Part shown: positions 14,851 to 62,697 of the stretch, piece by piece
How the letters are laid out: each line of letters opens with the position of its first letter
Position numbering within the stretch: the stretch's first letter is position 1
From: Elusimicrobiota bacterium
GTDB taxonomy: Bacteria > Elusimicrobiota > Elusimicrobia > 2-01-FULL-59-12
Length of the DNA stretch: 64,000 nucleotides
Assembly: GCA_041660185.1 (NCBI GenBank)
Contig: JBAZWU010000011.1
Span: 28,883-92,882 of the forward strand
Direction of reading: 5' to 3'
Position numbers and translations under genes: made by a program
Notes under the pieces: generated by a model
The model's input: the letters and a program-made list of their open reading frames with translations, nothing else
What the model was told of the DNA's origin: nothing
Database searches by the model: none

Positions 14851-15081
14851 ATTTCAGTTTAGCACTTCAGAAGCTTACGGGGCTCTTATTTCTTATGGCA
14901 TAAAACCTCATCACATTCTCACATTGGGTCACCCCTTTGATTGTTAATCTCTGAAACCTTGGATGTAAGGTAATTTTTCTTCGGGCGGTTTCGGTTTTTT
15001 CTTAAGATCCTCGACGTCTCGAATCAGCAGTCGAATGTCGGTGTCATGCACCGAGACTTTCCCCTCCAGTTTTTCGACCCT

Positions 15082-16663: not shown

Positions 16664-16679
16664 GGGATTTCGCGCTCCA

Positions 16680-19631: not shown

Positions 19632-19688
19632 AAGACCTCCTCATTTCAGAGAGAGATGCTCCGGACATCTAATGGAACAGCTTGTGTC

Positions 19689-19964
19689 TCAGAAGGAGAG
19701 GGCGGGAGGAGAAAGGCCGTGGGAAACGAAAACGAAGTGAACGTACGAAGAAGGGCCATCAATAAACAGGGAATCCGTAATCACAACTCCCGGAACGATC
19801 CGCTGCGCGACATCCGTTAAAGCGGGCGTCTGATGAGCGATTTTACAGACAACACAATTCGTTTCGGATTGGACCGCCGGGTGGCGGTGGCACATCTGCA
19901 GCGCGGAGGATCCGAGGAATACGGAAAGGATCAGCAACGGCAAAACCCGGGCGCACTTTTTCAT
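19689..19964 (-). CDS. hypothetical small secreted protein (CxxH/CxxC-containing)
   Basis: 91 aa with a signal-like N-terminus. Weak call. Confidence 0.3.
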   Translation of the reverse strand: MKKCARVLPLLILSVFLGSSALQMCHRHPAVQSETNCVVCKIAHQTPALTDVAQRIVPGVVITDSLFIDGPSSYVHFVFVSHGLSPPALSF

Positions 19965-26756: not shown

Positions 26757-26886
26757 CCCTCACCCCAACCCTCTCCCTCAGCAGGGGGAGGGAGTTTCAG
26801 ATTCTCTGCACGTTTCCTTTCCCTCTCCCTGTTGAGGGAGAGGGAAAGCCGGACGGCCGCAGGCCGGACAGGCGCGGGTGAGGGCA
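26757..26886. repeat. ~130-bp composite palindromic repeat (P/G/E-coding 'GEG' element), copy A, intergenic between convergent genes
   Basis: 'ccctcaccccaaccctctccctcagcagggggagggag' ... 'ccctctccctgttgagggagaggg' ... 'gggtgaggg'. It contains nested hairpins with 10-bp perfect stems. The family recurs at 49348, 58021, 58447 and 59307. Confidence 0.8.
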
Positions 26887-38592: not shown

Positions 38593-38658
38593 TTGCAACT
38601 TTGCATCGACTACGCCTCTCGTTGGCAAAGACAGCTGCAAAGTTGCAACTACGTCCCC
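38583..38658. repeat. REP pair (BIME-like): 23-bp 'GGGGACGTAGTTGCAACTTTGCA' and its inverted copy separated by 30 bp
   Basis: Forward copy 38583-38605, inverted copy 38636-38658. They sit between convergent gene ends. Confidence 0.85.
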
Positions 38659-49347: not shown

Positions 49348-49436
49348 CCCTCACCCCTACCCTCCCCCTCCGCAGGGGGAGGGAGCACAACCTATCTTCC
49401 CCCTCTCCCTCAGGAGGGAGAGGGCTGGGGTGAGGG
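49348..49436. repeat. P/G/E-coding palindromic 'GEG' repeat, copy B (intergenic, upstream of wza-like gene)
   Basis: 'ccctcacccctaccctccccctccgcagggggagggag...ccccctctccctcaggagggagagggctggggtgaggg'. Confidence 0.8.
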
Positions 49437-49452: not shown

Positions 49453-49926
49453 TTACGGTTTTTGACTATTAGCAGGCGCGCCAAGGACCTTCATCGGGAT
49501 GACTTTCCCCTTGGGGGGCGATTCATCCGGCTGGCTTTTAGTAATAGGAAGGGGGCCATCATCAAAATATCCATCAAACCGGAAGGTGAAACAGGCCAGC
49601 GTCCCGAGCGCCACACCAAGCCCATCGGCCATCAGATCATTGACACTGGGATTGGAATCCACCAAGAACTCTTTGGCGACTCCGACTCCTAATACGCCGG
49701 TGGCGGCGACCCAGGTCGCCGGTAGTCGAGGGACATTCATCAGTCGCAGGGTTTGCGTCCCGATAAACGTCCCCCCTGCGCCCAGCCAAAAATGTTCCTG
49801 GGAATCCGTCCGGGTGAAAACAAATTTTTTCTCCACATACTCAACAGCCCCGGCATTCGTTCCCCAGAATAAGCACACCGCCAGAAAGCAGGACGGCGCG
49901 CCGCGCCGAACGTTCATCAGCGCCAC
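49453..49926 (-). CDS. hypothetical secreted protein
   Basis: 157 aa with a signal peptide. It is Gly/aromatic-rich. No family recognised. Confidence 0.35.
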   Translation of the reverse strand: MALMNVRRGAPSCFLAVCLFWGTNAGAVEYVEKKFVFTRTDSQEHFWLGAGGTFIGTQTLRLMNVPRLPATWVAATGVLGVGVAKEFLVDSNPSVNDLMADGLGVALGTLACFTFRFDGYFDDGPLPITKSQPDESPPKGKVIPMKVLGAPANSQKP

Positions 49927-52166
49927 TCACTCCGAAGAGCGCTCTGGCCGAAATAGTATTCGCAGCGCGGTTTCCAGTCTTCATTGACCGGAGCACCGGC
50001 GCCCATCGACCGGACAACCGCCCGATCCCCGATATACTCGCGAGCCGCCAGAATCCGCTTCTGGTCTTCCCGGCTGAAGGACGACAGGATGGCTTTTTCC
50101 CGCGCCTCGTTTTTGACCATGGGTTGAAGCGAAGCCAGGCAGAAATGGCTGTACGCCCGCATATAAGGGAATACCGAGGCCAGCGTGTAGGGGATCACAC
50201 GGTGTTCGCTGGACCAGACCATCAGAACTCCCTGAGGGGTGAGACGCCGGCTGGCCAGTTCAAAGAATTGGCGGGAGTAGAGGTTGTTGCTGTACACCGT
50301 GCTGTGGTAGATCGGATCCATTTGAATCGCGTCATATTTTTCCGTCTGGCGGATGAGAAAACGCCGGCCGTCGTCCATGACCAGGCGAAGACGATGATCC
50401 GCCAGCGACGACTGGATCAACGGGATCTTGCGGAGATTCGTCATCAAGGTGTGATTGAGCTCGACCACCACCAGTTCTTCGATTTCCCGCGATCGCAGGA
50501 TGATGTCGCACAATTCTCCGGTACCGTACCCGATCAGGAGAATTTTCCGGGGGTTTGGCGTATAGAGCAGGGTTTCAACCGCTTCCTGCATGAAGTCATA
50601 ATTGGGCCGGCCGCCGTGAACCAAACCGTTGATGTAATTGATCAGCCGTTCCCCTTTCGAATAGGTCACCACGACCCCTTCCCGTCCCTCTTCAATGAAG
50701 CAGGTGCCGTAATCGAAGTTGGGGTGAATCGCCCCGTAGAGCGCTTGCCGTCGCGGGAATAGCCCGGCAGCGACCAGGCCGACCATCACCACGGTCAGCA
50801 CCGCTTTCCCATACGGAAGAGCGATCTGGAACCGCCGGTAAAACGGGAAAATAAACACCAGCCCTCCGGCGATGAAAAGCAGGAGGGTATTTTCCGTTCC
50901 CCAGCGCGGCAGAAAATAAAATCCGGTGACAAGCCCCCCCAGCACATTGCCCAGAATGGTCCAGGCGTATACCCCGCCGACCGTTGAAGCCTCCCGGTTG
51001 GGGTCTCTCAGGCTCAACGCCGACACGAGCGGGAAACTGGCGCCCATCAGGACGGTGGGCAGGAAAATAAATAAGAACGGCCACGTCACGATATCCACCG
51101 TCAAATAGAGATCCCGGGCATACTGCATCCAACTCACAAAATGCGGCCAGTGCGCCGGCGGATGCATCATGTACCCGAACGAAATGGCATGCAGCCATTT
51201 AAACGGCCGGATCCCGCTTAAATGGAAAAATCCCGCAAAGGAAACCAGCATGTAACAGGCGATCGCGAGCTGGATACCGAAGAAAAACCGTTCCCGCTGG
51301 GCCGCTTGCGGATGGCGGGCCAGCATCCCGGACATCCAGAAACTGCCCACCGCCAGTCCCACGAGATACACCGCCAGCACCGTGGCAAACGCGTAGGGCG
51401 ATTCTTTGACGATCACCCCCAGCACCCGGTACCAGATAATCTCATACCCGATGGCAGCAAAACCGGTAAAGAAAACCCACAACCGCACCCACCGCATCGG
51501 GAAGGACGAAGACTCTGCGGCGACCGGTTGAGGCGGACGATCCGTCCGGGACCAGCGCCAGCGGCAGACGAGGATCAGAATCGCCATCACTCCGTTGACG
51601 GCGGCCGCGACAGTCAGCGCCGTATCGAGCCCGCCGAAAGTGATCAACCCATAAGCGGCGGTCAGCGACCCGATGGCCGCACCGATCGTATTGATGAAGT
51701 ACAGATGGCTGATGGTTTGGCCAAAATCCGGCAGGAGTGAACCGTATATTTTGGTGAGCATCGGCAAGGTCATCCCCATGAGCGTCGTCGGGATGAGCAA
51801 GAAGAGACTGACGCAGAGAAACGTGACCGGCAGCGAGCAGCCCGCGCTCACGCGTCCGAGCGCGTCCAAAATCTGAAAACTGGCCAGACCAAAGACGCCG
51901 ATCAGAAGTTCAATCCCGGCATACAAAAACATCCGGTCGCGTTTTTTTTCCGCCAGCCGCCCGCCGATCAACGCCCCGAGGCCCAGCCCTCCCATGAAAA
52001 CGGAAATGATCAGGGTAATGGAGACCGAGCCGACGCCGTAATACAGCGTCAGCAGTCTCTGCCAAACCACTTGATAGATGAGAGCGGTAAATCCGGAGAG
52101 GAAAAAAACAGACGTCAACAGTCTGCTCACGGATATCGGCGGCCGCTGAAGGGGTGCGTTGTCCAT
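49917..52166 (-). CDS. fused membrane (MFS-like multi-TM) / spermidine synthase-family (PABS) protein
   Basis: The N-region is polytopic (~12 TM, 'FFLSGFTALIYQVVWQRLL'). The C-region 'ILLIGYGTGELCDIIL...VVVELNHTLM...RLVMDDGRRFL...YDAIQMDP' matches the spermidine synthase/aminopropyltransferase fold. Confidence 0.7.
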   Translation of the reverse strand: MDNAPLQRPPISVSRLLTSVFFLSGFTALIYQVVWQRLLTLYYGVGSVSITLIISVFMGGLGLGALIGGRLAEKKRDRMFLYAGIELLIGVFGLASFQILDALGRVSAGCSLPVTFLCVSLFLLIPTTLMGMTLPMLTKIYGSLLPDFGQTISHLYFINTIGAAIGSLTAAYGLITFGGLDTALTVAAAVNGVMAILILVCRWRWSRTDRPPQPVAAESSSFPMRWVRLWVFFTGFAAIGYEIIWYRVLGVIVKESPYAFATVLAVYLVGLAVGSFWMSGMLARHPQAAQRERFFFGIQLAIACYMLVSFAGFFHLSGIRPFKWLHAISFGYMMHPPAHWPHFVSWMQYARDLYLTVDIVTWPFLFIFLPTVLMGASFPLVSALSLRDPNREASTVGGVYAWTILGNVLGGLVTGFYFLPRWGTENTLLLFIAGGLVFIFPFYRRFQIALPYGKAVLTVVMVGLVAAGLFPRRQALYGAIHPNFDYGTCFIEEGREGVVVTYSKGERLINYINGLVHGGRPNYDFMQEAVETLLYTPNPRKILLIGYGTGELCDIILRSREIEELVVVELNHTLMTNLRKIPLIQSSLADHRLRLVMDDGRRFLIRQTEKYDAIQMDPIYHSTVYSNNLYSRQFFELASRRLTPQGVLMVWSSEHRVIPYTLASVFPYMRAYSHFCLASLQPMVKNEAREKAILSSFSREDQKRILAAREYIGDRAVVRSMGAGAPVNEDWKPRCEYYFGQSALRSEWR

Positions 52167-52209: not shown

Positions 52210-53367
52210 TTGATGTCTTTGGCTATGAAATCCCCTCACAAACCGGCGTTCGAGCTTCAACTCCTATGCAAACTCCTGGCTTTGCGGCCAAGCCAGGAGG
52301 AATGTCTTTCAGACCTCCGCGCACCAGGTTTTTGCTGGGATCTATTCCTTCAGTTGGCGGAGTACCACGGGGTGATCGGATTTCTCTACGAGGCCCTGAC
52401 CGAAACCGGCCTGGCCCGGGAAGTTCCACCCAAGCTCCTGGAAGCGCTGCGGCATTCCACTCTGGTTCTCCTGGAAGAGCACCTGCAGCACAGGAGCGCG
52501 ATCCGGAAAACGCTGGAAACCCTGAACGCGGCCGGGTTGGAATTTATCGTTATTAAAGGGTGGTCACACGCCGAATCACTTCATGGGAACCCCTGCGCCC
52601 GTCCCATCACGGACCTGGACCTTCTCGTACACGACACGAAGGCGGCTCAAGCCCTGCTGAAACAACAGAGACTGCCGGACCCATCGATCGTAGACTGGCA
52701 TATCTATCCCACAAACACGTCGGATCTGCCGTCCCGCATGCGGTGCCTGCAGCTCGACATCCAGACGCTCTGGGCGGATTCGCGCCTCGCCACGATCACA
52801 GACACGCCGGCGCGCGTTCTTTCTCCGGCTGACCAGGTCATCGCCCTGGTGATCGACTTCACGATTTCGCATGGGTTCGGGAGGCTACTCCTTTTAAAGG
52901 AGATCCTGCTTCTGGCTGAAAAAGTCGGATGGGATGCGCTGGTGAAGAGGGCTCAACTATTCCAGGCTGACATTTTGCTGTACTTGACCCTCCGCATGGG
53001 AGAGGAACTTCTGCGATTCCCGGTTCCCCTCGATATTTTAAAAATCTTAGGGACTCGCTTAAGGCAAGAAGAACACTGGCTGGAAAAACGGCTGATTCAA
53101 AATCCGCTTTTTACCCCGGCCCGGTATTTCTGTATTCCGATTCTCCTGCCTTCCTGGGCCGATCGCCTGAGTTTTGCCAAAGAACTGCTCTGGCCTCCCC
53201 CCTATTGGTTCGAGCTCCGCAGCGAAAAACCGTCTCTCTGGCGCCACCTCATCCATGACGCGACGCTTATCGGCAAGGCATGCGCCATTTTATGGAACGT
53301 CAGGGGACGTAGTTGCAACTTTGCAAAAGGTGCCGGAAAAAATCCTTTTTTCCCCAAGACCGGGTAA
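52210..53367 (+). CDS. uncharacterised nucleotidyltransferase family protein (PF14907/NTP_transf_5-like), RiPP-cluster accessory type
   Basis: 'LNAAGLEFIVIKGWSHAESLHGNPCARPITDLDLLVHDTKAAQALLKQQ' matches the IKG...R..DIDLLV...D signature of this family. Confidence 0.65.
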   Translation: MMSLAMKSPHKPAFELQLLCKLLALRPSQEECLSDLRAPGFCWDLFLQLAEYHGVIGFLYEALTETGLAREVPPKLLEALRHSTLVLLEEHLQHRSAIRKTLETLNAAGLEFIVIKGWSHAESLHGNPCARPITDLDLLVHDTKAAQALLKQQRLPDPSIVDWHIYPTNTSDLPSRMRCLQLDIQTLWADSRLATITDTPARVLSPADQVIALVIDFTISHGFGRLLLLKEILLLAEKVGWDALVKRAQLFQADILLYLTLRMGEELLRFPVPLDILKILGTRLRQEEHWLEKRLIQNPLFTPARYFCIPILLPSWADRLSFAKELLWPPPYWFELRSEKPSLWRHLIHDATLIGKACAILWNVRGRSCNFAKGAGKNPFFPKTG

Positions 53368-53423
53368 AACAAGAAATATAGGCCATTTCCTGTCTCGTTG
53401 TGCAAAGTTGCAACTACGTCCCC
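53303..53423. repeat. REP pair: forward 23-bp REP (53303-53325) and inverted copy (53401-53423) with 75-bp spacer
   Basis: Exact matches to GGGGACGTAGTTGCAACTTTGCA and its reverse complement. They sit between the nucleotidyltransferase and ABC ATPase genes. Confidence 0.85.
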
Positions 53424-53446
53424 TGACGTTTTATATACTCAAACGT

Positions 53447-54190
53447 GTGACTTGTTCCATCGACGTACGGGGTGTTTCGAAATCGTTTTTCCCGCGGCTC
53501 TCTTTATTAAAACCCTGGCAGCCGAGGCCCCCCGTCCGCGCGCTCAATCACGTGAACCTCCGGGTGGAAACAGGAACGGTTTTCGCCCTGCTGGGCCCGA
53601 ATGGTTCCGGCAAAACGACCCTCCTCAAAATCATCAGCACGCTTCTGATGCCGGATGCCGGGACGCTTCGCGTGCTGGGTCACGTCCTGCCGGGGCAGGA
53701 GGAACGCGTCAAAACGCGAATCAGTTTCGCCATGGGAGACGAGCGAAGTTTCTACTGGCGCCTGACCGCCCGGCAGAACTTGATGTTTTTTGCTGCGCTC
53801 TATGATCTTTCCCCCCGGCAATCCGAACAAAAGATCGCTGAACTGGGTGACGTGTTCAGCCTGAAAGACTACCTTGACCGCCCCTACGAAGAACTCTCAT
53901 CCGGGATCCGGCAGCGCCTGGCGATCGCGCGATCCTTTCTGAACGACGCGGCCCTCCTGCTGGCCGATGAACCCACCCGCAGCCTCGATGCGGCCGCCAG
54001 AAACGCGCTTCACGGACTTCTTCAAAAACTCGTGCGGGAACACGGAAAAACGATTCTCTTCACAACGCATAATTTTGAGGAAGCCCGACGGGTGGCGGAC
54101 ACGGTAGGGATTTTGAATCAGGGCCGGCTTTGTTACTCCGGAAAATGGAAAGACGGCCTGGAGAGTTACCTCAATGCCCCCGCTTCGTAA
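53447..54190 (+). CDS. ABC transporter ATP-binding protein
   Basis: 'LLGPNGSGKTTLLKII' is Walker A, 'LSSGIRQRLAIARSF' the signature, 'LLLADEPTRSLD' Walker B. A GTG start at 53447 is chosen downstream of the REP; the listed ORF starts earlier inside repeat DNA. Confidence 0.85.
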   Translation: MTCSIDVRGVSKSFFPRLSLLKPWQPRPPVRALNHVNLRVETGTVFALLGPNGSGKTTLLKIISTLLMPDAGTLRVLGHVLPGQEERVKTRISFAMGDERSFYWRLTARQNLMFFAALYDLSPRQSEQKIAELGDVFSLKDYLDRPYEELSSGIRQRLAIARSFLNDAALLLADEPTRSLDAAARNALHGLLQKLVREHGKTILFTTHNFEEARRVADTVGILNQGRLCYSGKWKDGLESYLNAPAS

Positions 54191-54989
54191 ACTCTGGGCT
54201 TTTTCCCTCCGGGACTGGCAGCTCGCCCAGACGTATCGCTTTACTTTTTTGTTTGAGGTGGTCCGCACGCTGATCTTGCTGCTCTCGTTTTATTTCATCG
54301 GCAAATTGGTCCGGAGCAGCGGTGTTCACCCATCCCTGGCTGTATACGGAGGCGATTACTTTCGCTTCGTCCTTTTGGGCATCGTGTTCAGCGGCTTCAT
54401 GTCCACCGCTCTGGGCAGCGTGCGGCAGACGATTGAATTTGAACGGGGGCATGGGACATTGGAAGCCATTTTACTGACCCCCACTCCCCTGATCACGCTC
54501 GTGATCAACAAAACCCTGTGGGATCTCGGCATGGTCACAGCCAAGGCCGTCCTGTATCTCCTGGCAGGAGTTTACTTTTTTCGAGTGGATCTCTCGCACG
54601 TTTATTGGACCAGCACGCTGGTGGCCATCGCTTTGACAGTCAGCACCTTTTTTGGTTTAGGGCTGATCTCCGCCGGTATTCATTTACTCATCCGGGAAGA
54701 CAGCCCTTTGGACCTGATTTTGGAAGGAGCCTCGCGCTTCCTGGGAGGCGTTTATTTCCCGGTGGCGGTTCTTCCCGCGCCTCTTCTCGCGCTGTCCCGC
54801 TGGGTGCCGCTCACCTATGCGCTCGACGCGATCCGAAAATCCATGATTCTTGGAGCTTCGCTTCAAACCATCCGGATGGAACTACTGGTGCTGGCAGGGT
54901 GTTCGATCGTTCTGGTTCCGATCGGCGTGATCTGTTTTCAGAGCGCTTTCAAGACCGCCCGACGCAGGGGAATTCTCAGCTTCGAGTAG
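54174..54989 (+). CDS. ABC-2 type transporter permease
   Basis: 271 aa, 6 TM. Overlaps the ATPase stop. The ABC-2 family topology is typical. Confidence 0.75.
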   Translation: MPPLRKLWAFSLRDWQLAQTYRFTFLFEVVRTLILLLSFYFIGKLVRSSGVHPSLAVYGGDYFRFVLLGIVFSGFMSTALGSVRQTIEFERGHGTLEAILLTPTPLITLVINKTLWDLGMVTAKAVLYLLAGVYFFRVDLSHVYWTSTLVAIALTVSTFFGLGLISAGIHLLIREDSPLDLILEGASRFLGGVYFPVAVLPAPLLALSRWVPLTYALDAIRKSMILGASLQTIRMELLVLAGCSIVLVPIGVICFQSAFKTARRRGILSFE

Positions 54990-55745
54990 GGTTTTACAAA
55001 GAAAGGCCATCGGCGCTGAAGGTTCCCCAGCCTGCTGGAAACCCAGGGACCGGTAAAGTCGGAGGGCAGCTTGATTATCCGATTCCACCGTTAAACAAAG
55101 TTCTCTGACCCCTTGTTGGCGTGCCGTCCGTATCAGCTCCCCTAACAACAAAGTCGCGATTCCGCCGCCGCGGACCCAAGCGCGGACAAGCAGGTCTTTG
55201 ATGTTTTCCTTTTGATTCGGCTTGACGACGAGAAAAACATAACCGGCTTTCCAAGAACCGATAAAGGCCTGAAAAACAAAGGCGCCCTCTTCTTCCATCC
55301 GATTAATCCGGACCCGCGAAGCCAAATAAACCCTGAACAACACACGGTATAAATGGAAAGACTGGACCCAGGACAAAACCCGGATTCCCGCCATTTTCAC
55401 TTGTCGCTTCATCCAGGAAGGCCCGTATCGAATGAACAGAAAAAGGAAATACCGTCTCCGAAGATCTTTTTCAAGGAAAATTCGGCTTCCCCGTTTGACC
55501 ATTTCCAAGCGACCGATCAATTGATCTTCGCGGATCCATTCGATCGCTAGCGGAAGCTCATCTCCTGCTACTCCGAAATAATTTGGCCCAGCCGACAATC
55601 GCCTGATGCACCTCAACCGGTGAGCCACCGGGTTATCGTGTTCCGTCTGGCGATAAAGCAGGATGTCTCCAATTTTGAGGGTGGTTGATGATGAGAAGGC
55701 CCGGACAAAAAGCTCATCGCCCGGGCGAAGGAAGGGCTGCATACT
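54882..55745 (-). CDS. fusion: S24/S26-type (signal-peptidase/LexA-like) serine peptidase domain + GNAT N-acetyltransferase domain
   Basis: The N-region 'GGSMQPFLRPGDELFVRA...IGDILLYRQ' matches the GDSMxPTL..GD box of Ser-Lys dyad peptidases. The C-region 'VRGGGIATLLLGELIRTARQQGVRELCLTVESDNQAALRLYRSLGF' is the GNAT acetyl-CoA binding motif. The start is placed at the internal Met; the ORF's first residues are REP-encoded. Confidence 0.55.
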   Translation of the reverse strand, partial: SMQPFLRPGDELFVRAFSSSTTLKIGDILLYRQTEHDNPVAHRLRCIRRLSAGPNYFGVAGDELPLAIEWIREDQLIGRLEMVKRGSRIFLEKDLRRRYFLFLFIRYGPSWMKRQVKMAGIRVLSWVQSFHLYRVLFRVYLASRVRINRMEEEGAFVFQAFIGSWKAGYVFLVVKPNQKENIKDLLVRAWVRGGGIATLLLGELIRTARQQGVRELCLTVESDNQAALRLYRSLGFQQAGEPSAPMAFLCKTLLEAENSPASGGLESALKTDHADRNQNDRTPCQHQ

Positions 55746-55785
55746 GCCACCCTCGGCCCGGCAGAAAAACGAGCCGGGAGCACTA

Positions 55786-55863
55786 GGGGACGTAGTTGCA
55801 ACTTTGCATAAGGTATTCATATGACACAAGATACCTTTGATGCAAAGTTGCAACTACGTCCCC
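55786..55863. repeat. REP pair: forward REP (55786-55808) and inverted copy (55841-55863) around a palindromic 32-bp spacer
   Basis: Exact 23-bp matches. The spacer 'taaggtattcatatgacacaagatacctttga' is itself an inverted repeat. Confidence 0.85.
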
Positions 55864-55887
55864 TGGCGGTCTTTCGCGACATCTCCG

Positions 55888-56091
55888 TCAGGACGTGGTG
55901 GCGCCGGAATCCCGGGCGGTTGTCACGCTTGCCCGCCGGCAACCGTTGGAGGTCCGACATCCCTTTGTTCCTCTGACAGACAAGCTGGTGCCGCTTCGTG
56001 TGCATGTGCTGAGAATGGCCTGCTCCCGGCGGAGCACAACTTGGGTGATTTGCGGGGACTGATACGGCTTTTTTTCAGTTACAGTCGTCAT
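55888..56091 (-). CDS. candidate RiPP precursor peptide (67 aa: leader MTTVTEKKPYQSPQITQVVLRREQAIL; Cys/Ser/Thr/Arg-rich core)
   Basis: The ATG starts immediately after the TAA of the upstream radical SAM gene. A strong SD 'AGAGGGAGAG' lies 5-14 nt upstream. My translation gives MTTVTEKKPYQSPQITQ... as listed. The core has 3 Cys and 18 Ser/Thr. Confidence 0.5.
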   Translation of the reverse strand: MTTVTEKKPYQSPQITQVVLRREQAILSTCTRSGTSLSVRGTKGCRTSNGCRRASVTTARDSGATTS

Positions 56092-57141
56092 TTAGCTCTC
56101 CCTCTGTGCGATAAACATCGCTTTTTTCTCCGCGACTTCCCGAAAATAGGGCATGCAAGGGGCATCAAATGCTTTTTGGTCCAACCAACCATCCATGCTT
56201 CCCCGATCGCAATGAAACGCGATCGGACAGGATGAGCACGCGTAGGCAGGGCCCGGCTTCTGCGCCGCGACAAACTTCACCAACGTTTGCCAGCCTTTTT
56301 CAACCGACCCCGCCGTCACATCATACGACGGATGATGGATGCAGACACAAAGATTCATCCGGCCATGAGGCGTCAAAGCGGCGTTGCTCTTGCCACAAAG
56401 ACAATCGAACAGTTTCCCGGCGGAACCGCATTTCCCCTCCAAGGATCCGCCGGCCTCTTGCATTGGCTTTCCGCTATTTTCACGCCATATCTCGAAAACC
56501 CTGGCAGGCGACAACCGGTACATCAAGGGTTCTTTTGAACCGTCCACTCTGGGATAGATGTCCGTGCCGATCCGATAGGGCAGTTGACGGGACCGGGCGA
56601 AGTCTTTCATGGGCTCCAGTTCGTGTTCATTCAGCGTCATCAAAACGAGTTTCAGCAGGATGGGGATATGCCTTTCTTTCAGCCAATCAACCCCCTCGAC
56701 AAAATGAGCGTAGGAACCGGGGATGCGCGTCACAGATTCATAACTGTCAGCCGTGGCGCCATAAACGGAAATTTCCACCAGATAAGGATCCAACTCCGCC
56801 ATCTGATCCGCCAGCGCCGGCGTGATCAGAGTGGCGTTCGTAGTGATCGTAATCACCATCCCAAGTGAGCGGGCATACCGCATAATCTCACAGGCATCCC
56901 GCCGGGTGAACACCTCTCCTCCGGTGAAACCGATCCACAGGCATCCCTGAGCCGCCATCTCATCTAACAGTCGGTAAACCTGTTCCGTGGTCAGTTCCTG
57001 TTTCGCTTCGTGGGTTGTGTTATAACAGTGCACGCAGCGCAGGTTGCAGCCGTACGTCAGCTCCACCGTGGCCTGAATCCACTGCGGACGGGCCTTGGCG
57101 TCCTCACTCAGCTGATCGATGAATTGATCAAACTCTTTCAT
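56092..57141 (-). CDS. radical SAM/SPASM domain peptide-modifying enzyme (rSAM-1)
   Basis: 'TYGCNLRCVHCY' is CxxxCxxC. The C-terminal Cys-rich SPASM region is 'CGSAGKLFDCLCGKS...CVCIHH...CSSCPIAFHCDRG'. The start is placed at 'MKEFDQ' (14-nt overlap with the kinase gene). Confidence 0.85.
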   Translation of the reverse strand: MKEFDQFIDQLSEDAKARPQWIQATVELTYGCNLRCVHCYNTTHEAKQELTTEQVYRLLDEMAAQGCLWIGFTGGEVFTRRDACEIMRYARSLGMVITITTNATLITPALADQMAELDPYLVEISVYGATADSYESVTRIPGSYAHFVEGVDWLKERHIPILLKLVLMTLNEHELEPMKDFARSRQLPYRIGTDIYPRVDGSKEPLMYRLSPARVFEIWRENSGKPMQEAGGSLEGKCGSAGKLFDCLCGKSNAALTPHGRMNLCVCIHHPSYDVTAGSVEKGWQTLVKFVAAQKPGPAYACSSCPIAFHCDRGSMDGWLDQKAFDAPCMPYFREVAEKKAMFIAQRES

Positions 57142-58012
57142 AAAGATAACGGACGATACGGTTGTCTTGAGTAAAGCGCAGTTCGCCGCTGGGAACATCC
57201 TTGACCAGGCGGGTCGCTGCCTCCACGAGCCGTGCCATGGCTTCCTGATTCCAAAGAGGCAAATACGCTTCCGTGAAAATCGATTTCAATACGGGCTGAG
57301 GCGGCCGCGGGAGAAACTGATTGTCCGTCGCCTGGACCAGAACTGAAAAACGCTTGAGAAGCGCTGCCCCCTTGGAAACCTGCCGAAGCTCGCCGTGCCA
57401 GGGCGTTCCCGCTACGTGCCAGTGTTTTCCCTCCCGCCAGAGAAGAATACGCTCGTCATTCAGCACCTGAGCGGAAGAATGTGTCCGGAAGAGCCTGGAA
57501 ATCGTGGTCTTGCCGGCGCCGGAGTGACCGATGAATGCCAGCCCCTTGCCCGACAGAGAAACCGCTGCCCCATGCAAAATCATCCCTTTCCTCCGAAGCG
57601 CCAGCCAGCCGGTCAGCCACCATTGGATCAAAGGCTCGGCCACATCTCCCAGGTACCACCCCTTCTGGCGAAGCCCGGGTGACCGGTACGTGAGCGGAAT
57701 CAGATGGAGATCGATTTGATCCCACTTCGGGGTGATGAAACACACCTGCCTGGGCAGAAAATGCATTTGTTCCAGAATTTCCAATCGCACTCTGCCCCTC
57801 TCCTGGTAGACGCGCCATTGATTGGGAAGCTCATAAAGGAAGCGGGGCTTCCCATGCGGCTTGGGCGCATCGGTCCGGACCTGGATGGTCACGGTCGGCG
57901 GGAGAGAATTTCTGTCTTCAAAGACACCGCAAAATTCATGCGGCCAATCATGCGGCGGGGTATCCGCGATAAATCGAATGACGGCAGGGCCGATTTTGAT
58001 AGTGAGCTTCAT
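57128..58012 (-). CDS. HPr kinase/phosphorylase C-terminal-domain-like protein (HprK-related kinase)
   Basis: 'GMILHGAAVSLSGKGLAFIGHSGAGKTT' is a P-loop in the HprK-C context. It overlaps the rSAM-2 stop (ATGA) and the rSAM-1 start. Confidence 0.7.
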   Translation of the reverse strand: MKLTIKIGPAVIRFIADTPPHDWPHEFCGVFEDRNSLPPTVTIQVRTDAPKPHGKPRFLYELPNQWRVYQERGRVRLEILEQMHFLPRQVCFITPKWDQIDLHLIPLTYRSPGLRQKGWYLGDVAEPLIQWWLTGWLALRRKGMILHGAAVSLSGKGLAFIGHSGAGKTTISRLFRTHSSAQVLNDERILLWREGKHWHVAGTPWHGELRQVSKGAALLKRFSVLVQATDNQFLPRPPQPVLKSIFTEAYLPLWNQEAMARLVEAATRLVKDVPSGELRFTQDNRIVRYLYERV

Positions 58013-59274
58013 GACGATGCCCCCTCACCCCTACCCTCCCCCTCAACAGGGGGAGGGAGCGTAAGATTTTTCGCGGATGTATCCCCTCTCCCTGCTGAGG
58101 GAGAGGGGCTGGGGGTGAAGGTCAAGATGCTGGCAGTTTGCCGAGCTTTCGCTACTTCACAGAAATAAGGGACCGGCGCTTCCATGGACCCTGCCTCATG
58201 GATCGCCATCACGGGATTTTTGTCGCAGAACAGATGGGAGGAACAACTCCGGCACGCCGACTCCCCGGTGTAGCGGGCCTGATTGATTTCCTCGGCTGAG
58301 CGCTGGAACGCCTCGGAAACAGGGATCGTTTTCAGATCATACGACGGCCAGGTGGTGAACGTGCAGGGGCGAAACACACCGTACGGACTGACCGTCAATT
58401 GATTGGTCCCGCATCCGCAGCGAAAGAGCCGGTCATCCGGGGGGGGACCCTCACCCCAACCCTCCCCCTCAACAGGGGGAGGGAGTATGAAATCTGCGGG
58501 GGATCCCCCCTCTCCCTGTTGAGGGAGAGGGCAAGCAGGACGACCGCTAGGTCGGACAGGCGCGGGTGAGGGTTTACACTCCTCTGCCACCTCCAGTTCA
58601 GCCACCTCGGCTCCAGATAACCGGTACTGCGTGGAGGAAAGGTCCCCGTTCAAACGCGGGTAAATCGTGGGATAGAGACTGAAATCCACCCCCAATCCTT
58701 CCACGTACGCTCTGATCTCGCCCAATTCCTGACGATTAACGGTCATGGCCTTGGTTTTGATCGCCACCGACAAACGCCGGTCCAGTAACCGGCGGATCCC
58801 TGCCTGAAAACACGCGTAGGAACCCGGCACCTGGGTCACCCGCTCAAAGGTCTCGGCACGAACGCCATGCAAACTCACCTCCAACTGAAAGGGAGGGTCC
58901 TTGGCGAGAAAATCCGCGATCTCGTCCGTGATCGTTGTCCCGTTGGTGAATAACGCGATCAGGAATCCTCTCTCCTTGGCCGCACGATATATATCCTTGA
59001 ATCGCGGATGAAGTACCGCTTCTCCTCCGGTGAGGGTAAGCCAGAGCACGCCGGCGGAGGCCAGGTCGTCAAGAATCCGGATCATTCCCGGCAGCGGCAA
59101 TTCCCGCGACAACGCCGTCGGGGTGTTAAAGGGGTCTGTAAAACAATGGACGCAATGGAGATTACATCGGTAAGTCAGTTCCAACTGTGCCTTGAGAGGA
59201 CTCCGATTTTCGACGCTCCGGGAAAAGACCCGGGCGCTGAACACACTGTACATTTCTTCTTGAAACTTGCTCAT
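58009..59274 (-). CDS. radical SAM/SPASM domain enzyme (rSAM-2) carrying in-frame repeat-encoded P/G/E-rich linker and C-terminal tail
   Basis: 'TYRCNLHCVHCF' is the rSAM motif. SPASM 'CGCGTN...CTFTT...CRSCSSHLFCDK'. The segment 'PLPQQGEGGSPADFILPPPVEGEGWGEGPPP' between the rSAM and SPASM domains and the tail 'LPPPVEGEGRGEGASS' are encoded by the palindromic repeats at 58447-58572 and 58021-58120. Confidence 0.8.
   Translation of the reverse strand: MSKFQEEMYSVFSARVFSRSVENRSPLKAQLELTYRCNLHCVHCFTDPFNTPTALSRELPLPGMIRILDDLASAGVLWLTLTGGEAVLHPRFKDIYRAAKERGFLIALFTNGTTITDEIADFLAKDPPFQLEVSLHGVRAETFERVTQVPGSYACFQAGIRRLLDRRLSVAIKTKAMTVNRQELGEIRAYVEGLGVDFSLYPTIYPRLNGDLSSTQYRLSGAEVAELEVAEECKPSPAPVRPSGRPACPLPQQGEGGSPADFILPPPVEGEGWGEGPPPDDRLFRCGCGTNQLTVSPYGVFRPCTFTTWPSYDLKTIPVSEAFQRSAEEINQARYTGESACRSCSSHLFCDKNPVMAIHEAGSMEAPVPYFCEVAKARQTASILTFTPSPSPSAGRGDTSAKNLTLPPPVEGEGRGEGASS
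58021..58120. repeat. P/G/E-coding palindromic 'GEG' repeat, copy C (overlapping rSAM-2 3' end / HprK-like start)
   Basis: 'cccctcacccctaccctccccctcaacagggggagggag...cccctctccctgctgagggagaggggctgggggtgaagg'. Confidence 0.8.
58447..58572. repeat. P/G/E-coding palindromic 'GEG' repeat, copy D (long variant), inserted in-frame inside rSAM-2
   Basis: 'ccctcaccccaaccctccccctcaacagggggagggag...cccccctctccctgttgagggagagggcaagcaggacgaccgctaggtcggacaggcgcgggtgaggg'. It shares its tail with copy A (26757-26886). Confidence 0.8.
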
Positions 59275-59306
59275 TTCCTAAACCCTCTAACGAACACATC
59301 TACGGA

Positions 59307-59396
59307 ACCCTCATCCGGCCTGCGGCCACCTTCCCTCTCAACAGGGGGAAGGACATTCTCCCTCTCCCTGTTGAGGGAGAGGGGACGGGGGTGAGG
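59307..59396. repeat. P/G/E-coding palindromic 'GEG' repeat, copy E (intergenic between rSAM-3 and rSAM-2)
   Basis: 'ccttccctctcaacagggggaagga...ccctctccctgttgagggagaggggacgggggtgaggg'. Confidence 0.8.
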
Positions 59397-59397
59397 G

Positions 59398-61575
59398 TTA
59401 AATGGTTTGGACAGCACCGATCGCCCGAAGTTCCGACAAATACGTCGCGACGTCCTGTTCGGCAACAGCGGAATCCACTGTAAATGCTTTTCCCAGCAAC
59501 GCTGTCAGTTCCCGGCCCGTACGCCGGCCGTCAATCTGTTCCCACAGGAAAGCGCCGACCTCATTCAACGTATAAAGAGATGGCTCCTGATTCGGCTGCC
59601 GGTTCGCGGGAACCAGAACCATCTCCCCCGCCACCCGGCGGGCCACCATCGTCGGGCACTTTTGAAACCGAAAATCCAGCTGTTCTGTTGAAGCCGCCAT
59701 GATCGTTCCTCCGCTTTTTTTCAGGTTCTGTATGATGCTGTTCCAGTTCTGTCGGGCGGCCGGCCACTCCGGGTCCAACTCCATCAAGCGCTCGTATTCC
59801 CGCAGGGCCGGTTCCCACTGTTTGAGAAATTCTTCCTTGTAAGCGGGCGTAGCATACAACGTTCGATAAGAGGGGTCCAGGGAAATCATCCGCTCCCAGG
59901 CTTCCCGGGCCGACGGGACATCGTTCCGCCCGAGGGCTTCGCAGACTTGCTCATAAACGCGCGCCGCCGAGCCGGCAGGCGGTTGATCCTCGACGAGAGC
60001 AGCGGGATCCAGCAGCGCGCGCTGAATGAGATCGCCGAAATATTTGTACCGCAGCGGCGTGTATCCTTTATTGACCGAGTACGAAAGGGTCACAAAGTCC
60101 GTCGGCAGCTCAACGGCCCGGAGACGCCGGAGAAAGTGACTCGGCTGCAGCCAGGGACCGGCGTAGTCGCTGTCAAAATACGGAAACAATCCAGTCCCGT
60201 CGATGTGGCGAGTCAGGAGATAATCCACATCGATGTCCAGGAGAACCGGTTTTATAAAGCGGGGCAGCGACTCCAGCCGGCACACCGTCAACGGGCATCC
60301 CATCAATAGGAGATGAATCCCTGTCTCGGAAACCCGTAAAGGGCCTGCCGAATCCGGTCTCGCATGAATCATTTCGTTAATCCATTGAATGAGTTTCTGC
60401 CGTTGGTCAGGGGTTTCCCAAAAACCATCAGGGATGACCCAATAAAGCTCGCGGATGAAGCCTTCCCGGATGGCTGGATAAAGGAAATTACCACTGTCCA
60501 TCGCTTTATGCGGAGGATGGTCATCGATCCAGAAAAAATCCAGATGACCGTCCAGATGAATCAGGGTTCGGCCCTGGACTCCAGCGTCTTTCCAGAGGGT
60601 GTAGGCCGTCTCATGATCTTCCATCAGATGGATCGACTTCGAAGGAATCGGATCAGCCGCCGCCAGGGATTTCTTTCGGGGGCAGGGAAAGCTCGGCAGC
60701 GCTTTGTAAAACCCTTCCAGAAAGGAGCCTCGTCTCAAGTCGTAGCTGGCCCGCCGGTTGTTGGAACACAGCTGAAGCTGCCCGTACGCATCGATGTGGA
60801 ATTTGTAGCGTCCCCCCTGACAGGGGAAGTCATCGGGGTATGTGGCGTGGCCGTCACGCTCCCGCTCCGCCCAGAGCTGAGGGTCCTGACGCTCGATGGC
60901 CGCCAGGTCTTTGTCGGACAACTGGAATCGCAGAGGGGCTCCACTGCCGGTCAGATCATCGAGCAGGTGTTCTCCAAACTGAAAAGACACGCCGGGACCG
61001 AAGTCGTCCACATAACGTTTGATCGCCAAAATCTCGTCCCGGTTCAGCGTCGTCCCCACTGTTTTCAACGTCACCGGGATCTGCCGTTCCATCAAAAGCC
61101 GAACCGCCTCCACATTCAGGGGACGTAGTTGCAACTTTGCACAAACAGCATCAGAGATCGCATGAAGGCTGATTTCCACCCGCACGGGAGGCATCCTGGC
61201 CCATTGATCGGCGATCTCGCGCGTGATGAGCGTTCCATTGGAGAAAACCGTAATGAGAAATCCAAAACGGTGAGCGGTTTCATAAATCTCCATGAAATCA
61301 GGCCGGCACAGCGGCTCCCCGCCGGTGAACGTGACTTCCAGGCAACCCGCGGCCTGGATCTCATGGAGAATGCGAAGGATGTCAGCGGTAGGAAGCTCCT
61401 GACGGATCCGCTCCGGCGTATTGAAACAATCCGTATAGCACATGGCACACGTCAGATTGCACCGGCAGGTGAGTTCCCACTGGCCGACCAAAGGAGCGCG
61501 ACCCTGGAGAGAACGGGCCAAGACTTGATCGCCGAAAACCTGCGATGAGCGGGTCGGGAAAGCGGGGATGGCCAT
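59398..61575 (-). CDS. multidomain protein: radical SAM (twitch/SPASM-like) domain + ~300-aa uncharacterised domain + TPR-like segment + C-terminal PqqD-like (RRE) domain (rSAM-3)
   Basis: 'LTCRCNLTCAMCY' is the rSAM cluster motif. The middle has a 'HLDGHLDFFWIDD' metal-site-like motif. The C-terminus 'LYTLNEVGAFLWEQIDGRRTGRELTALLGKAFTVDSAVAEQDVATYLSELRAIGAV' matches the PqqD fold pattern. The start is placed at 'MAIPAF'; the listed ORF starts within a REP. Confidence 0.75.
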   Translation of the reverse strand: MAIPAFPTRSSQVFGDQVLARSLQGRAPLVGQWELTCRCNLTCAMCYTDCFNTPERIRQELPTADILRILHEIQAAGCLEVTFTGGEPLCRPDFMEIYETAHRFGFLITVFSNGTLITREIADQWARMPPVRVEISLHAISDAVCAKLQLRPLNVEAVRLLMERQIPVTLKTVGTTLNRDEILAIKRYVDDFGPGVSFQFGEHLLDDLTGSGAPLRFQLSDKDLAAIERQDPQLWAERERDGHATYPDDFPCQGGRYKFHIDAYGQLQLCSNNRRASYDLRRGSFLEGFYKALPSFPCPRKKSLAAADPIPSKSIHLMEDHETAYTLWKDAGVQGRTLIHLDGHLDFFWIDDHPPHKAMDSGNFLYPAIREGFIRELYWVIPDGFWETPDQRQKLIQWINEMIHARPDSAGPLRVSETGIHLLLMGCPLTVCRLESLPRFIKPVLLDIDVDYLLTRHIDGTGLFPYFDSDYAGPWLQPSHFLRRLRAVELPTDFVTLSYSVNKGYTPLRYKYFGDLIQRALLDPAALVEDQPPAGSAARVYEQVCEALGRNDVPSAREAWERMISLDPSYRTLYATPAYKEEFLKQWEPALREYERLMELDPEWPAARQNWNSIIQNLKKSGGTIMAASTEQLDFRFQKCPTMVARRVAGEMVLVPANRQPNQEPSLYTLNEVGAFLWEQIDGRRTGRELTALLGKAFTVDSAVAEQDVATYLSELRAIGAVQTI
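61119..61141. repeat. single REP copy lying in-frame inside the rSAM-3 coding sequence (encodes ...AKLQLRPL...)
   Basis: Exact 23-bp 'ggggacgtagttgcaactttgca'. Protein length around it appears normal for the rSAM fold. Confidence 0.8.
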
Positions 61576-61592
61576 GCCGTTATCGTAGGACG

Positions 61593-62621
61593 TCAGGGGA
61601 CGTAGTTGCAACTTTGCATATTGAGTCTTTCCTTAAGCTCAAACCGATGGGCCAGGCGCTGACCTCGTTCAAATGCCCTGCTGGCGGTGCTCGTTGATAG
61701 AACGAGTTGCTTCCCCATCCCGGTGACAGATTGCTTAAACCAGACTACTCCGGCATATACCGCCATGGCCTTCGCATCTGACAGCGCGCGCCGCTGACCC
61801 GTTTCGGAAAAGTAATGGGGGTCTTCTCCGGTCAGATCGGCAATAAGATCCAATACCTTTTCAAAATTGATTGATTTTGGAATGGGCGTTTCATCACAAC
61901 CGTCTTTCGCCTTGCGCAGGGTTTCTTCCACAAAAGCACTGTCCCCCAGCAAACGTAGGTCGTACGCGTAGGCTTCACCGCTTCTGATGGCCTGCAGAGC
62001 AGGACCTCCCCCTCCCCAACTACGAATAAGTCCGCCTCCTTCTAACTGGTCCTGTCGTTTCTGACTCCAAGCCTCCATTACAAATAATTCGTAGTTTGCC
62101 CGCGCCTGGCGCAAAGTCGGGCCAAAACGTTCAAGAACTTTCCCGGCAACCTGCCAGGGCCTGTCTAAGGTACCCATCAGAGCCGAGTGGCTTGTCCAAG
62201 GATAGACAGCCAGTTCAGAAGGCGATCGGACAATTCCCGCGCGCACTGGGTTAAGAGCGATATAACGTATCAGCTCCAGAAAATAGGGATCCTCCTGACA
62301 GATGATGTCCTTGTATCGGTTTTGAAACAAATGACCGGCGCGCTGATAGCGCAGGTTAAATGAGACGGCATACCCAGTCAAAAGCTTTTGCATGACCCGA
62401 GAAATGCGCGTGGAAGCCGTCTGGAGCAACAGGTGCAGGTGATTAGGCATGAGCGCCCAGGCGTAACAGAGGGTTTTCGTTTCTTGGAGGATGCGACCTA
62501 ACCGGTCGGCGAATTCGGAGTAATCTCGATTTGATCTAAAAATAGAGCGTTTTTCAATTCCCCTCGCGATTACGTGATGAAAGAGTCCAGGGAAGTCGAT
62601 ACGAGGTAAACGTGGCATCAC
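61593..62621 (-). mobile_element. REP-associated tyrosine transposase (RAYT; IS200/IS605-family Y1 HUH transposase) with ~190-aa C-terminal extension, flanked by inverted REPs (61596-61618 and 62665-62687)
   Basis: 'MPRLPRIDFPGLFHHVIARGIEKRSIFRSNRDYSEFADRL...YAWALMPNHLHLLLQT' contains the HuH motif (HLH) and the Y1 architecture. The REP at its 3' end encodes the C-terminal '...MQSCNYVP'. An inverted REP with 1 mismatch lies 44 bp upstream of the start. Confidence 0.75.
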
Positions 62622-62697
62622 TTACTTAGATAAAGTTTTTGGCGATATATTCGAGGGGGTGCTATGAAAAGTTGCAACTACGTCCCCTGACGTTGGT

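Follow-up and report, generated by a model that had tools for sequence, protein, structure and literature searches.

We describe here a gene cluster at positions 52210–61611 of a 64-kb stretch (the window, whose coordinates are used throughout) of a contig of 94,663 bp from an Elusimicrobiota metagenome-assembled genome (MAG). The cluster is real, widely conserved, and a member of an undescribed family. We propose, with a probability of roughly 0.6, that it makes a peptide which is synthesized on ribosomes and then modified post-translationally (a RiPP) from a small precursor that has three cysteines and ends in serine, and that this peptide is cross-linked, phosphorylated and further decorated; clusters of the same kind would then form a widespread, undescribed RiPP family. 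Features generally expected of a RiPP locus are present: a conserved leader followed by a variable core, a precursor gene lying beside modifying enzymes, and a PqqD-like domain for leader recognition.

The cluster consists of nine open reading frames (ORFs). The plus strand encodes a PF14907 nucleotidyltransferase, an ABC ATPase and an ABC-2 permease, while the minus strand, which converges on these genes, encodes a 737-residue radical SAM (rSAM) fusion protein starting at ATG 61575, a second rSAM enzyme (rSAM-2), a P-loop kinase, a third (rSAM-1), a 67-residue ORF, and a fusion of a peptidase to a GNAT domain. The kinase gene overlaps rSAM-2 by the four nucleotides ATGA, rSAM-1 overlaps the kinase gene by 14 nucleotides, and the 67-residue ORF begins directly past the rSAM-1 stop codon, preceded by the ribosome-binding-site-like sequence GGGAGAG. 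An earlier note, made from the sequence alone, had listed these nine ORFs at or near the positions given here, and had described both overlaps and the GGGAGAG sequence just as we find them. NCBI labels both the kinase and the small ORF as hypothetical protein. A scan for promoters and terminators gave no signal above that of shuffled sequences.

The 67-residue ORF (55888–56091, minus strand; MTTVTEKKPYQSPQITQVVLRREQAILSTCTRSGTSLSVRGTKGCRTSNGCRRASVTTARDSGATTS) contains a YxxPxI leader motif, three cysteines and a DSG motif, and has serine as its C-terminal residue. A profile search identified 199 relatives at E ≤ 0.01, which rules out a chance ORF. Among the best 120 of the 199, the C-terminal residue is serine in 118 and there are exactly three cysteines in 118. 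No variation is seen at Y10, P13, L20, C30, C45 and C51, and very little at E23, Q24, A25, L27, S28 and the DSG motif near the C-terminus. The common leader is lasso-like and can be written as KKPYxxPQIxRVxLxxEQAILSxC or as KKPYxxPxIxxVxLxxEQAIL; its YxxPx(I/L) motif resembles that bound by the PqqD-type B1 proteins of lasso peptide systems. The core between the cysteines varies widely. Small ORFs found at the equivalent position in six other loci align with the precursor of the window, and the precursor gene adjoins rSAM and kinase genes in 27 of the 29 loci that extend for at least 1.5 kb on both sides of it. Arrays of two to four divergent precursor genes in tandem, which are typical of RiPP clusters, occur in L002 (12094–13140), L023 (9757–10437), L021, L042, L045, L047 and L052. 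There are also orphan copies of the Nitrospira type, at 10001–10201 of L029 (on a 128-kb contig) and in L030 (on a 66-kb contig), with no cluster enzymes within 10 kb. No NCBIfam model matches the peptide, and every named relative is annotated as hypothetical protein. The number of relatives, the invariant cysteines, the conserved C-terminal serine and the common leader therefore bear out the suggestion that this ORF is a precursor gene: it belongs to a genuine precursor family.

Ten independent loci were collected through the kinase and the precursor, and 45 more were found by scanning metagenomes with the precursor profile. They were scored using hidden Markov models built from the first loci, and the main census was restricted to the 19 loci that have at least 5 kb on both sides of the precursor. 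Seventeen of these encode PqqD, three types of rSAM enzyme (A, B and C) and the kinase, and the two exceptions (L029 and L030) are the orphan precursor copies. The nucleotidyltransferase is found in 16 of the 19 (17 with L002, in which the distance exceeds 9 kb), the peptidase in 16, the ABC-2 permease in 5 (as well as in several shorter loci), and a gene for an arginase domain with TPR repeats, described below, in 5. Loci with a named source come from Nitrospira, Nitrospirota, Bdellovibrionota and Elusimicrobiota; among them is the complete Nitrospira genome AP038805.1, with an intact orthologous cluster (L014) at about 1,470,400–1,475,900. The genes thus occur together far beyond chance, and across several phyla; the co-localization that had been expected of homologous loci is present, and the census rules out a fortuitous adjacency. 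A scan of genome contigs using the kinase profile was dominated by the P-loop pattern and returned just two distant loci.

The kinase (57128–58012, minus strand) is an ScmC-like P-loop protein with the HprK/PEPCK fold. It and 23 of its 25 relatives have a precomputed match to PF27840 (ScmC). A Foldseek comparison of its AlphaFold model (pLDDT 93.1) with the PDB identified PEPCK and HprK/P structures (1knx, 1kkl, 1jb1, 2qmh) at E values of 6e-6 to 2e-4 and a probability of 1.0, and a search of the PDB by sequence, using the kinase profile, gave mainly P-loop matches, with HprK at E = 0.03. The conserved features are H147, GxSxAGKT (containing K168), D186-E187-R188 and TPW. H147, K168 and D186 are invariant in the 26 members of the family, while position 187 is Glu in 22 and Asp in 4. 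Lasso peptide kinases require a catalytic His-Lys-Asp-Asp tetrad (PMC9266682), to which these four positions correspond, the last being Glu or Asp. The scores against sequence models are low. Pfam Hpr_kinase_C (PF07475) matched none of the 26 members at E ≤ 0.1, and the NCBIfam matches, to HprK_rel_B in 24, HprK_rel_A in 15 and ScmC in 9, all fall below their cut-offs. HprK_rel_A (TIGR04352) and HprK_rel_B score at most 31 bits against a cut-off of 200, and the window kinase scores 26 bits against HprK_rel_B (TIGR04355); ScmC (TIGR04249) did not match the window kinase at E ≤ 0.01 and scores 27.8 bits with the Nitrospira orthologue, against a cut-off of 125. The original designation as an HprK-related kinase therefore holds for the fold and the tetrad, but not for Hpr_kinase_C or the TIGRFAM models. 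The family is large: the kinase profile found 1,529 full-length representatives at E ≤ 1e-30, counted as clusters at 50% identity, among 1.84 billion.

Homologues of HPr kinase in lasso peptide systems phosphorylate the conserved C-terminal serine of the linear precursor (PMC8498205, PMC9266682), a neighboring protein with a nucleotidyltransferase fold adds hexoses to the phosphoserine (PMC8498205), and the leader is bound by a protein of PqqD type (PMC8498205, PMC9266682). The association of HprK-like kinase, PqqD and nucleotidyltransferase to which the earlier note had pointed thus matches a studied set of tailoring enzymes, that of the phosphorylated lasso peptides (PMC8498205, PMC9266682). 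Distant relatives of the kinase (27–32% identity), in L010 and L012, also adjoin serine-terminated peptides whose leader is similar, and the serine is therefore tied to the kinase rather than to the set of rSAM enzymes. The nucleotidyltransferase (52210–53367, plus strand), recognized from the outset as PF14907-like, matches PF14907 (NTP_transf_5) at E = 3.2e-26, and its 92.8 bits are well over the cut-off of 31.2. The Pol-beta-type signature, KG ... RPxxDxDLL ... D, is intact, and eight orthologues show its K, G, R, D, D and L to be invariant.

All three rSAM enzymes match PF04055: type C, which is rSAM-1 (56092–57141, minus strand), at E = 1.9e-24; type B, which is rSAM-2 (58009–59274, minus strand), at E = 4.7e-16; and type A, the N-terminal domain of the 737-residue protein (rSAM-3; 60637–61575, minus strand), at E = 6e-22. 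When the enzymes are aligned with their orthologues in seven other loci, CxxxCxxC is invariant in all three types. Types B and C have C-terminal domains with seven cysteines, in the conserved pattern CxC-G-x10-G-x4-C ... Cx2Cx5C ... C. This is SPASM-like, except that it lacks the Cx3C element of the SPASM consensus, Cx9-15Gx4C ... Cx2Cx5Cx3C ... C. Type A has just Cx13Gx4C and one further cysteine, and thus a twitch-like half of the domain. In the Pfam search SPASM (PF13186) reached a sub-threshold 16.2 bits in rSAM-2, against a cut-off of 21.5, and did not match rSAM-1 or rSAM-3. The reading of these genes as three SPASM/twitch rSAM enzymes is consequently supported by the rSAM domain and the conserved C-terminal cysteines, while the Pfam threshold for SPASM is not reached. 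Among solved structures SkfB is the best relative of all three, PqqE is also close, and BlsE, CteB or MoaA come next; the match of type A to SkfB (E = 1.1e-22) reaches through the twitch region. SkfB, PqqE and CteB all modify peptides. Because of the kinship to SkfB, CteB and AlbA, thioether cross-links of the sactionine or ranthionine type are the most likely chemistry by analogy. NCBIfam scores are again well below cut-off: MftC (TIGR03962) matches rSAM-1 with 101 bits over 12–315 of 339 (cut-off 265), PqqE (TIGR02109) gives 73 bits at best (cut-off 381), and ScmE (TIGR04250) and ScmF (TIGR04251) give 66–73 bits for rSAM-2 and rSAM-3 and 57–69 for rSAM-1 (cut-off 400).

The 737-residue protein contains more than the rSAM and PqqD domains initially recognized in it; a peptide-arginase-like domain and TPR repeats had been missed. 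In other loci the order is rSAM-A, arginase-TPR, PqqD, PqqD, all as separate genes, and the window protein is therefore a fusion of four domains. The PqqD-like domain, which is a RiPP recognition element (RRE), lies at the C-terminus as originally suggested (59398–59625, minus strand; residues 663–733) and matches PF05402 at E = 6.6e-14. PqqD of the Nitrospira orthologue matches the lasso PqqD chaperone model NF033536 with 26.8 bits. The TPR repeats (59720–59980, minus strand) were detected by TPR_2, TPR_9 and TPR_14 at E ≈ 1e-3, and this region is shortened, being much longer in the homologues. The arginase-like domain (PF12640/UPF0489; 60010–60624, minus strand) covers residues ~330–535. A profile of six homologues has a single significant match in the PDB, to 8brp, annotated as Peptide arginase, at E = 5.2e-9. 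PF12640, the peptide arginase family (PMC12703449), matches five of the six homologues, the best at E = 9.7e-7, and does not match the window domain itself, which has a deletion that makes it ~29 residues shorter than the others. The motifs EDH (60624–60607), DGHLD (60558–60538) and DIDVD (60240–60220) are invariant across six sequences of the domain. The binuclear manganese site of OspR is formed by His12, Asp39, His41, Asp43, Asp165 and Asp167 (PMC10028609), and the motifs in the window match all six of these ligands, plus the Glu.

The residue following the third cysteine of the precursor is Arg in all nine precursors from six arginase-bearing loci, and Lys in 23 of 29 precursors from loci without the arginase. 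This pattern would fit a requirement for a primary amine, from either Lys or ornithine, at this position. One of the Arg loci, L067, has a full arginase domain together with a PRMT-like methyltransferase. That gene, at 10603–11646 of L067, encodes a PRMT/PrmA-like (protein arginine methyltransferase-like) protein, lies beside the precursor, and is also present in L068.

The peptidase–GNAT fusion (54882–55820, minus strand) has an uncertain start. The earlier note placed it at 55745, where the codon is AGT. A start at the annotated ATG (55742) would leave out the serine that is the putative catalytic residue; we therefore consider ATG 55820 or TTG 55853, both of which retain this residue, to be the likelier start. 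The peptidase is S26-like, of the SipW/Sec11 type. It is below threshold against signal peptidase I (TIGR02228), with 37.3 bits in the window and 37–39 with the Nitrospira orthologue included, against a cut-off of 51.85, and it matches PF00717 at E = 0.004. Its SM..P and HRL motifs are kept in four to five of six aligned sequences, and stand in the window copy provided that translation begins upstream of 55745; GD and GR motifs also align. The C-terminal GNAT domain matches PF00583 at E = 4.5e-12. The description as an S24/S26-peptidase–GNAT fusion is thus supported by the GNAT match and the Ser and His motifs, while the peptidase scores are sub-threshold and the start proposed for it was wrong. 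We regard the protein as a candidate leader peptidase and N-acetyltransferase. Among the loci compared the fusion is found only in the window genome, and GNAT is therefore not a feature of the whole family. The last ~40 residues of this ORF lie past the GNAT domain and may be read-through.

The ABC ATPase (53447–54190, plus strand) has a GTG start and is DrrA/NodI-like, matching PF00005 at E = 4.8e-29 and drrA (TIGR01188) with 194 bits, which is below the cut-off; the ABC-2 type permease (54174–54989, plus strand) matches PF01061 at E = 9.2e-9. Both had been named as such from the sequence. Homologues of the ATPase adjoin the cluster in L002, L005, L006, L007, L008, L017, L040 and L055. The permease and the peptidase–GNAT ORFs converge, and their 3′ ends overlap by 108 nucleotides (54882–54989). 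Taken together, the original domain assignments hold at the level of family or fold, with those of SPASM, HprK and S24/S26 supported by motif or fold and not by Pfam threshold.

Among known systems, those of lasso peptides that are phosphorylated or phosphoglycosylated (paeninodin PadeK/ThcoK, SyanK; pseudomycoidin PsmK/PsmN) share with our cluster a kinase related to HprK, a protein of nucleotidyltransferase fold, a leader binder of PqqD type and an ABC exporter, together with a YxxPx(L/I) leader motif, a conserved C-terminal serine and the His-Lys-Asp-Asp/Glu residues. They differ in that our cluster has three rSAM enzymes and three invariant cysteines in place of the cyclase and B2 protease, and in that the window kinase is below the thresholds of Pfam Hpr_kinase_C and TIGR04352. 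Pfam listings for 13 related loci show neither an Asn-synthase-like lasso cyclase nor a transglutaminase-like B2 protease, and the asparagine synthase of the window is an exopolysaccharide (EPS)-type fusion. We therefore reject a lasso peptide cluster.

Other systems share different parts of the cluster. The maturation systems of sactipeptides and ranthipeptides (SkfB, AlbA, CteB, PapB) likewise combine twitch or SPASM rSAM enzymes, a PqqD-like RRE and precursors that contain cysteine. However, they use one rSAM enzyme rather than three dedicated ones, and our cluster adds the serine-tailoring module and the arginase, has a SPASM motif without Cx3C, and is only predicted to form thioethers. 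The peptide arginases (OspR of landornamide; PF12640) are represented by 60010–60624, which is homologous to the solved structure 8brp and keeps the six manganese ligands plus the Glu; here, though, the domain is fused to TPR, PqqD and rSAM domains, in an rSAM/kinase context rather than one of proteusin or lanthipeptide type. A 2025 survey of arginase clusters makes no mention of a kinase, PqqD or TPR (PMC12703449). SynChlorMet (SCM) cassettes, comprising ScmC, ScmE, ScmF and a PqqD homologue, also have PqqE-like rSAM/SPASM proteins, PqqD and an ScmC-family protein (PF27840). Our family differs from them in that its precursors are identified, its rSAM enzymes are of three types, and a nucleotidyltransferase and a peptidase are present. 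We know of no precursor or substrate assigned to the SCM cassette in the TIGRFAM text. GeoRSP systems with HprK-related kinase B (TIGR04303, TIGR04355) likewise pair an HprK-related kinase with rSAM/SPASM and PqqD; against these models the kinase scores 26–31 bits against 200, and the rSAM enzymes 47–69 bits against 400. HprK_rel_B, which we take to belong to the GeoRSP context, is the NCBIfam model most often matched by the kinase family (24 of 26). With all scores far below the curated NCBIfam cut-offs, membership of SCM, GeoRSP, HprK-rel-A/B, mycofactocin or PQQ systems is rejected. As PF27840 and the TIGRFAM models for SCM, GeoRSP and the HprK-related kinases make clear, sister systems had already come to the notice of curators in silico. 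Within the full-text literature, subscription literature being outside its scope, our search found no paper on the cluster; this negative and the low scores against the system models agree with the initial impression that no described RiPP class fits. By analogy, the cluster resembles a hybrid of a sactipeptide or ranthipeptide pathway with the phospho-tailoring module of lasso peptides and a peptide arginase.

The gene content, homologies, synteny and precursor conservation set out above are observations, and from them we infer the chemical steps of a pathway, their order and the role of the product. The proposal is made because the trio of kinase, nucleotidyltransferase and PqqD found in lasso systems recurs here together with the C-terminal serine, with rSAM enzymes and cysteines replacing the cyclase and B2 protease. 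The PqqD domain would bind the N-terminal leader of the 67-residue precursor. The three rSAM enzymes, one of them twitch-type and two SPASM-like, would then act on the core around the three invariant cysteines, most likely forming thioethers, and the HprK-fold kinase would phosphorylate the invariant C-terminal serine. The PF14907 nucleotidyltransferase could then add a sugar or nucleotide to the phosphate, in the manner of PadeK/ThcoK and PsmN in the case of paeninodin and pseudomycoidin. In the clade to which the window belongs, the peptide-arginase domain would turn one or more arginines into ornithine. The signal-peptidase-like protease is expected to cleave off the leader, after which, in this genome, the GNAT domain fused to it would probably acetylate the new N-terminus, and the ABC-2 transporter would export the product.

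Several observations weigh against this reading. The NCBIfam system models are far below cut-off, so that no enzymology can be transferred from an equivalog, and Pfam SPASM and Hpr_kinase_C are not matched at threshold. Two minimal relatives, L010 (whose contig starts just upstream) and L012, have a single visible rSAM gene and yet three to four cysteines in the peptide. A rule of one rSAM enzyme per cysteine is therefore unsupported on the stretches visible. In the window itself, a copy of a repetitive extragenic palindromic (REP) element at 61119–61140 (within 61117–61140, residues 158–165 of the 737-residue protein) replaces, with the frame kept, a segment of the type A rSAM domain for which all seven homologues share the consensus VFExVTxxPGSxxxCxxGI; there are also deletions in the arginase and TPR regions. 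As to the target of the arginase, L063 has Lys after the third cysteine and yet retains, where its contig ends, at least the final 72 residues of an arginase domain, which weakens a strict rule that the arginase is present if and only if Arg follows this cysteine; moreover, the arginase-bearing loci are related to one another.

The REP copy in the type A domain is one of many. Family 1, the 22-mer GCAAAGTTGCAACTACGTCCCC, has nine copies in the window, where none are expected by chance, mostly as inverted pairs 30–80 nucleotides apart, at 38583–38658, 53303–53423, 55786–55863, 61119–61140, 61596–61617 and 62666–62687. One inverted pair (53291–53435) separates the nucleotidyltransferase from the ABC ATPase, and the C-terminal tail of the nucleotidyltransferase is encoded by a REP copy. 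Another pair (55778–55871), with 32-nucleotide arms that are 91% complementary, occupies the gap between precursor and peptidase, with one arm falling in the 5′ end of the peptidase ORF. Copies of this family supply the end codons of several ORFs (CKVATTSP, AKLQLRP or QSCNYVP), and flank an IS200/Y1-transposase (RAYT-like) gene at 61593–62621. Family 2, CCTCCCCCTGTTGAGGGGGAGGGT, is palindromic and forms inverted pairs, at 26768–26845, 49359–49382, 58033–58108, 58459–58532 and 59328–59384. The last of these lies in the gap between rSAM-3 and rSAM-2. Two are in frame within rSAM-2, at 58459–58532 in a variable linker and at 58033–58108 at the 3′ end; they encode PPPVEGEGxGEG, and the 3′ pair extends the gene to the ATGA overlap. 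The copy in the type A domain may impair that enzyme, and the local copy of the cluster may likewise be impaired.

In the window the cluster adjoins an EPS locus, as had been pointed out from the sequence, with genes for Wza, a GNVR-type tyrosine kinase, an AsnB–glycosyltransferase fusion, Wzy, GT4, a methyltransferase and GT28. Within the clade that has TPR and arginase, such adjacency is seen in five independent loci (the window, L005, L016, L058 and L067/L068). L005 is syntenic with the EPS genes of the window, L016 and L058 each have a GNVR kinase, and in L067/L068 the cluster lies between GNVR/Wzy_C genes and genes for Bac_transf, a GT4 glycosyltransferase and a carbamoyltransferase. The Nitrospira-type loci, which are the majority, have no EPS genes within 10 kb. 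The link to EPS is thus specific to one clade, and may be functional or inherited. The AsnB fusion is a 1024-residue GATase–AsnB–GT1 glycosyltransferase protein (42918–45992, minus strand) and is the only Asn_synthase of the window; a homologue is found among the EPS genes of L005. Between the EPS export genes and the cluster lies a gene for a 749-residue fusion of an MFS-like membrane domain to a spermidine/spermine-synthase-like domain (49917–52166, minus strand), which is beside the cluster in no other locus examined.

The other loci contain several variants. Further methyltransferase genes lie in the clusters of L007 (5632–6774) and L016 (10772–11545). Downstream of the four precursors of L002, at 13287–19906, are genes for two B12-binding rSAM proteins and for GDSL-lipase-like proteins, with the ABC transporter beyond them, so that L002 may hold a longer version of the pathway. 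The minimal variant L012 (9572–12764), from a Nitrospirae MAG, encodes an ABC exporter similar to MsbA, a protein resembling ScmC (27% identity), a single rSAM enzyme, PqqD, an S26-like peptidase and a peptide of 58 residues ending in PSPSS. A nucleotidyltransferase was not detected in L012, and genes for cysteate synthase and sulfopyruvate decarboxylase adjoin it. In L010 (3208–6417), the kinase gene and a small S26-like gene are followed by one for a 1069-residue Peptidase_C25 (gingipain-like) protein.

Other interpretations of the same genes were considered. Instead of a bioactive peptide for export, the cluster might make a cofactor or small metabolite derived from a peptide, as the PQQ and mycofactocin systems do. 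The conserved C-terminal ...DSGxRPS end would be processed by PqqD and the rSAM enzymes, trimmed by the peptidase, and decorated by the kinase and nucleotidyltransferase, as MftF glycosylates mycofactocin. The mycofactocin maturase is indeed the best NCBIfam match of rSAM-1 and PqqE is among the top PDB relatives, the C-terminal motif and final serine are the most conserved features of the core, and the Nitrospira-type loci have no transporter beside the cluster. We nevertheless regard a cofactor as improbable, since the scores are far below the cut-offs for MftC and PqqE, the core between the cysteines varies widely, precursors occur as divergent tandem genes and as orphans, many loci encode an ABC-2 exporter, and no redox partner enzymes are conserved nearby. 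The role of the kinase is a separate question. The ScmC-like protein might be an ATP-dependent scaffold or a phosphorylase, or act on another substrate, with the serine conserved for recognition by an exporter or protease, or the like. Members of the family have no threshold match to any characterized kinase family, the fourth tetrad residue is mostly Glu, and PEPCK, a small-molecule kinase, matches the structure as well as HprK/P does. However, the Walker A motif, His and Asp are invariant, the closest named relatives (HprK-related kinases A and B, and ScmC) are all in RiPP contexts, and the C-terminal serine accompanies the kinase even in distant variants, as in the lasso case, where this serine is the phosphorylation site. 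A protein that does not phosphorylate the peptide therefore seems rather unlikely.

The position beside EPS genes raises the further idea that the product is a peptide of the cell surface or linked to EPS, with the phosphoserine as the site of glycan attachment or priming, and that in this clade the cluster belongs functionally to the EPS locus. The five independent loci in which it lies beside or inside EPS genes favor this, as does the ability of PsmN-type enzymes to place hexoses on phosphoserine (PMC8498205); we think it improbable in view of the Nitrospira-type majority without EPS genes within 10 kb, the possible explanation of the adjacency by common ancestry, and the lack of any glycosyltransferase conserved throughout the family. 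It is also conceivable that the local copy is a decaying remnant, inactivated by REP invasion in this MAG, within a family that functions elsewhere. The loss of the conserved type A segment, the REP pairs inside rSAM-2, the short arginase and TPR regions, the ORF ends built of REP-derived codons and the adjoining RAYT-like transposase all point this way. We consider inactivation unlikely, because all nine reading frames are open (including 737 codons read through a REP copy) and the catalytic motifs are intact, namely CxxxCxxC, the auxiliary cysteines, the kinase tetrad, the arginase ligands and the nucleotidyltransferase DxD; in addition, the insertions in rSAM-2 are confined to the variable linker and the C-terminus. 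A RiPP that is cross-linked at its cysteines and phosphorylated on its terminal serine thus remains our preferred reading.

A more far-reaching form of it, which we offer tentatively, is that these clusters define a RiPP class not described so far, which is common in Nitrospira and in further lineages that are uncultured, in which three dedicated rSAM enzymes lock a three-cysteine core and a kinase and nucleotidyltransferase of lasso type build a phospho-glycosyl or phospho-nucleotidyl group on the C-terminal serine, and to which the Elusimicrobiota-type clade adds ornithine and a functional tie to EPS export, for example as a peptide that bears a glycan or is associated with EPS. The cluster falls within the rSAM RiPP clusters that have an RRE, and such families regularly surface in genome mining of this kind; the combination of enzymes has not been described before. 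If the proposal is correct, a pathway to which curators had so far pointed in silico alone, through ScmC and the HprK-related kinases, would gain a concrete and testable set of precursor and enzymes. The module that phosphorylates and glycosylates the C-terminal serine of lasso peptides would be portable to rSAM peptides, and peptide arginases would extend to a new context and fusion architecture. That one clade repeatedly has the cluster beside genes for polysaccharide export hints at a possible cell-surface role. The product would be a natural product of Nitrospira, which are key nitrifiers, and of poorly studied phyla, and with ~1,500 clusters of the kinase this biology is not rare.

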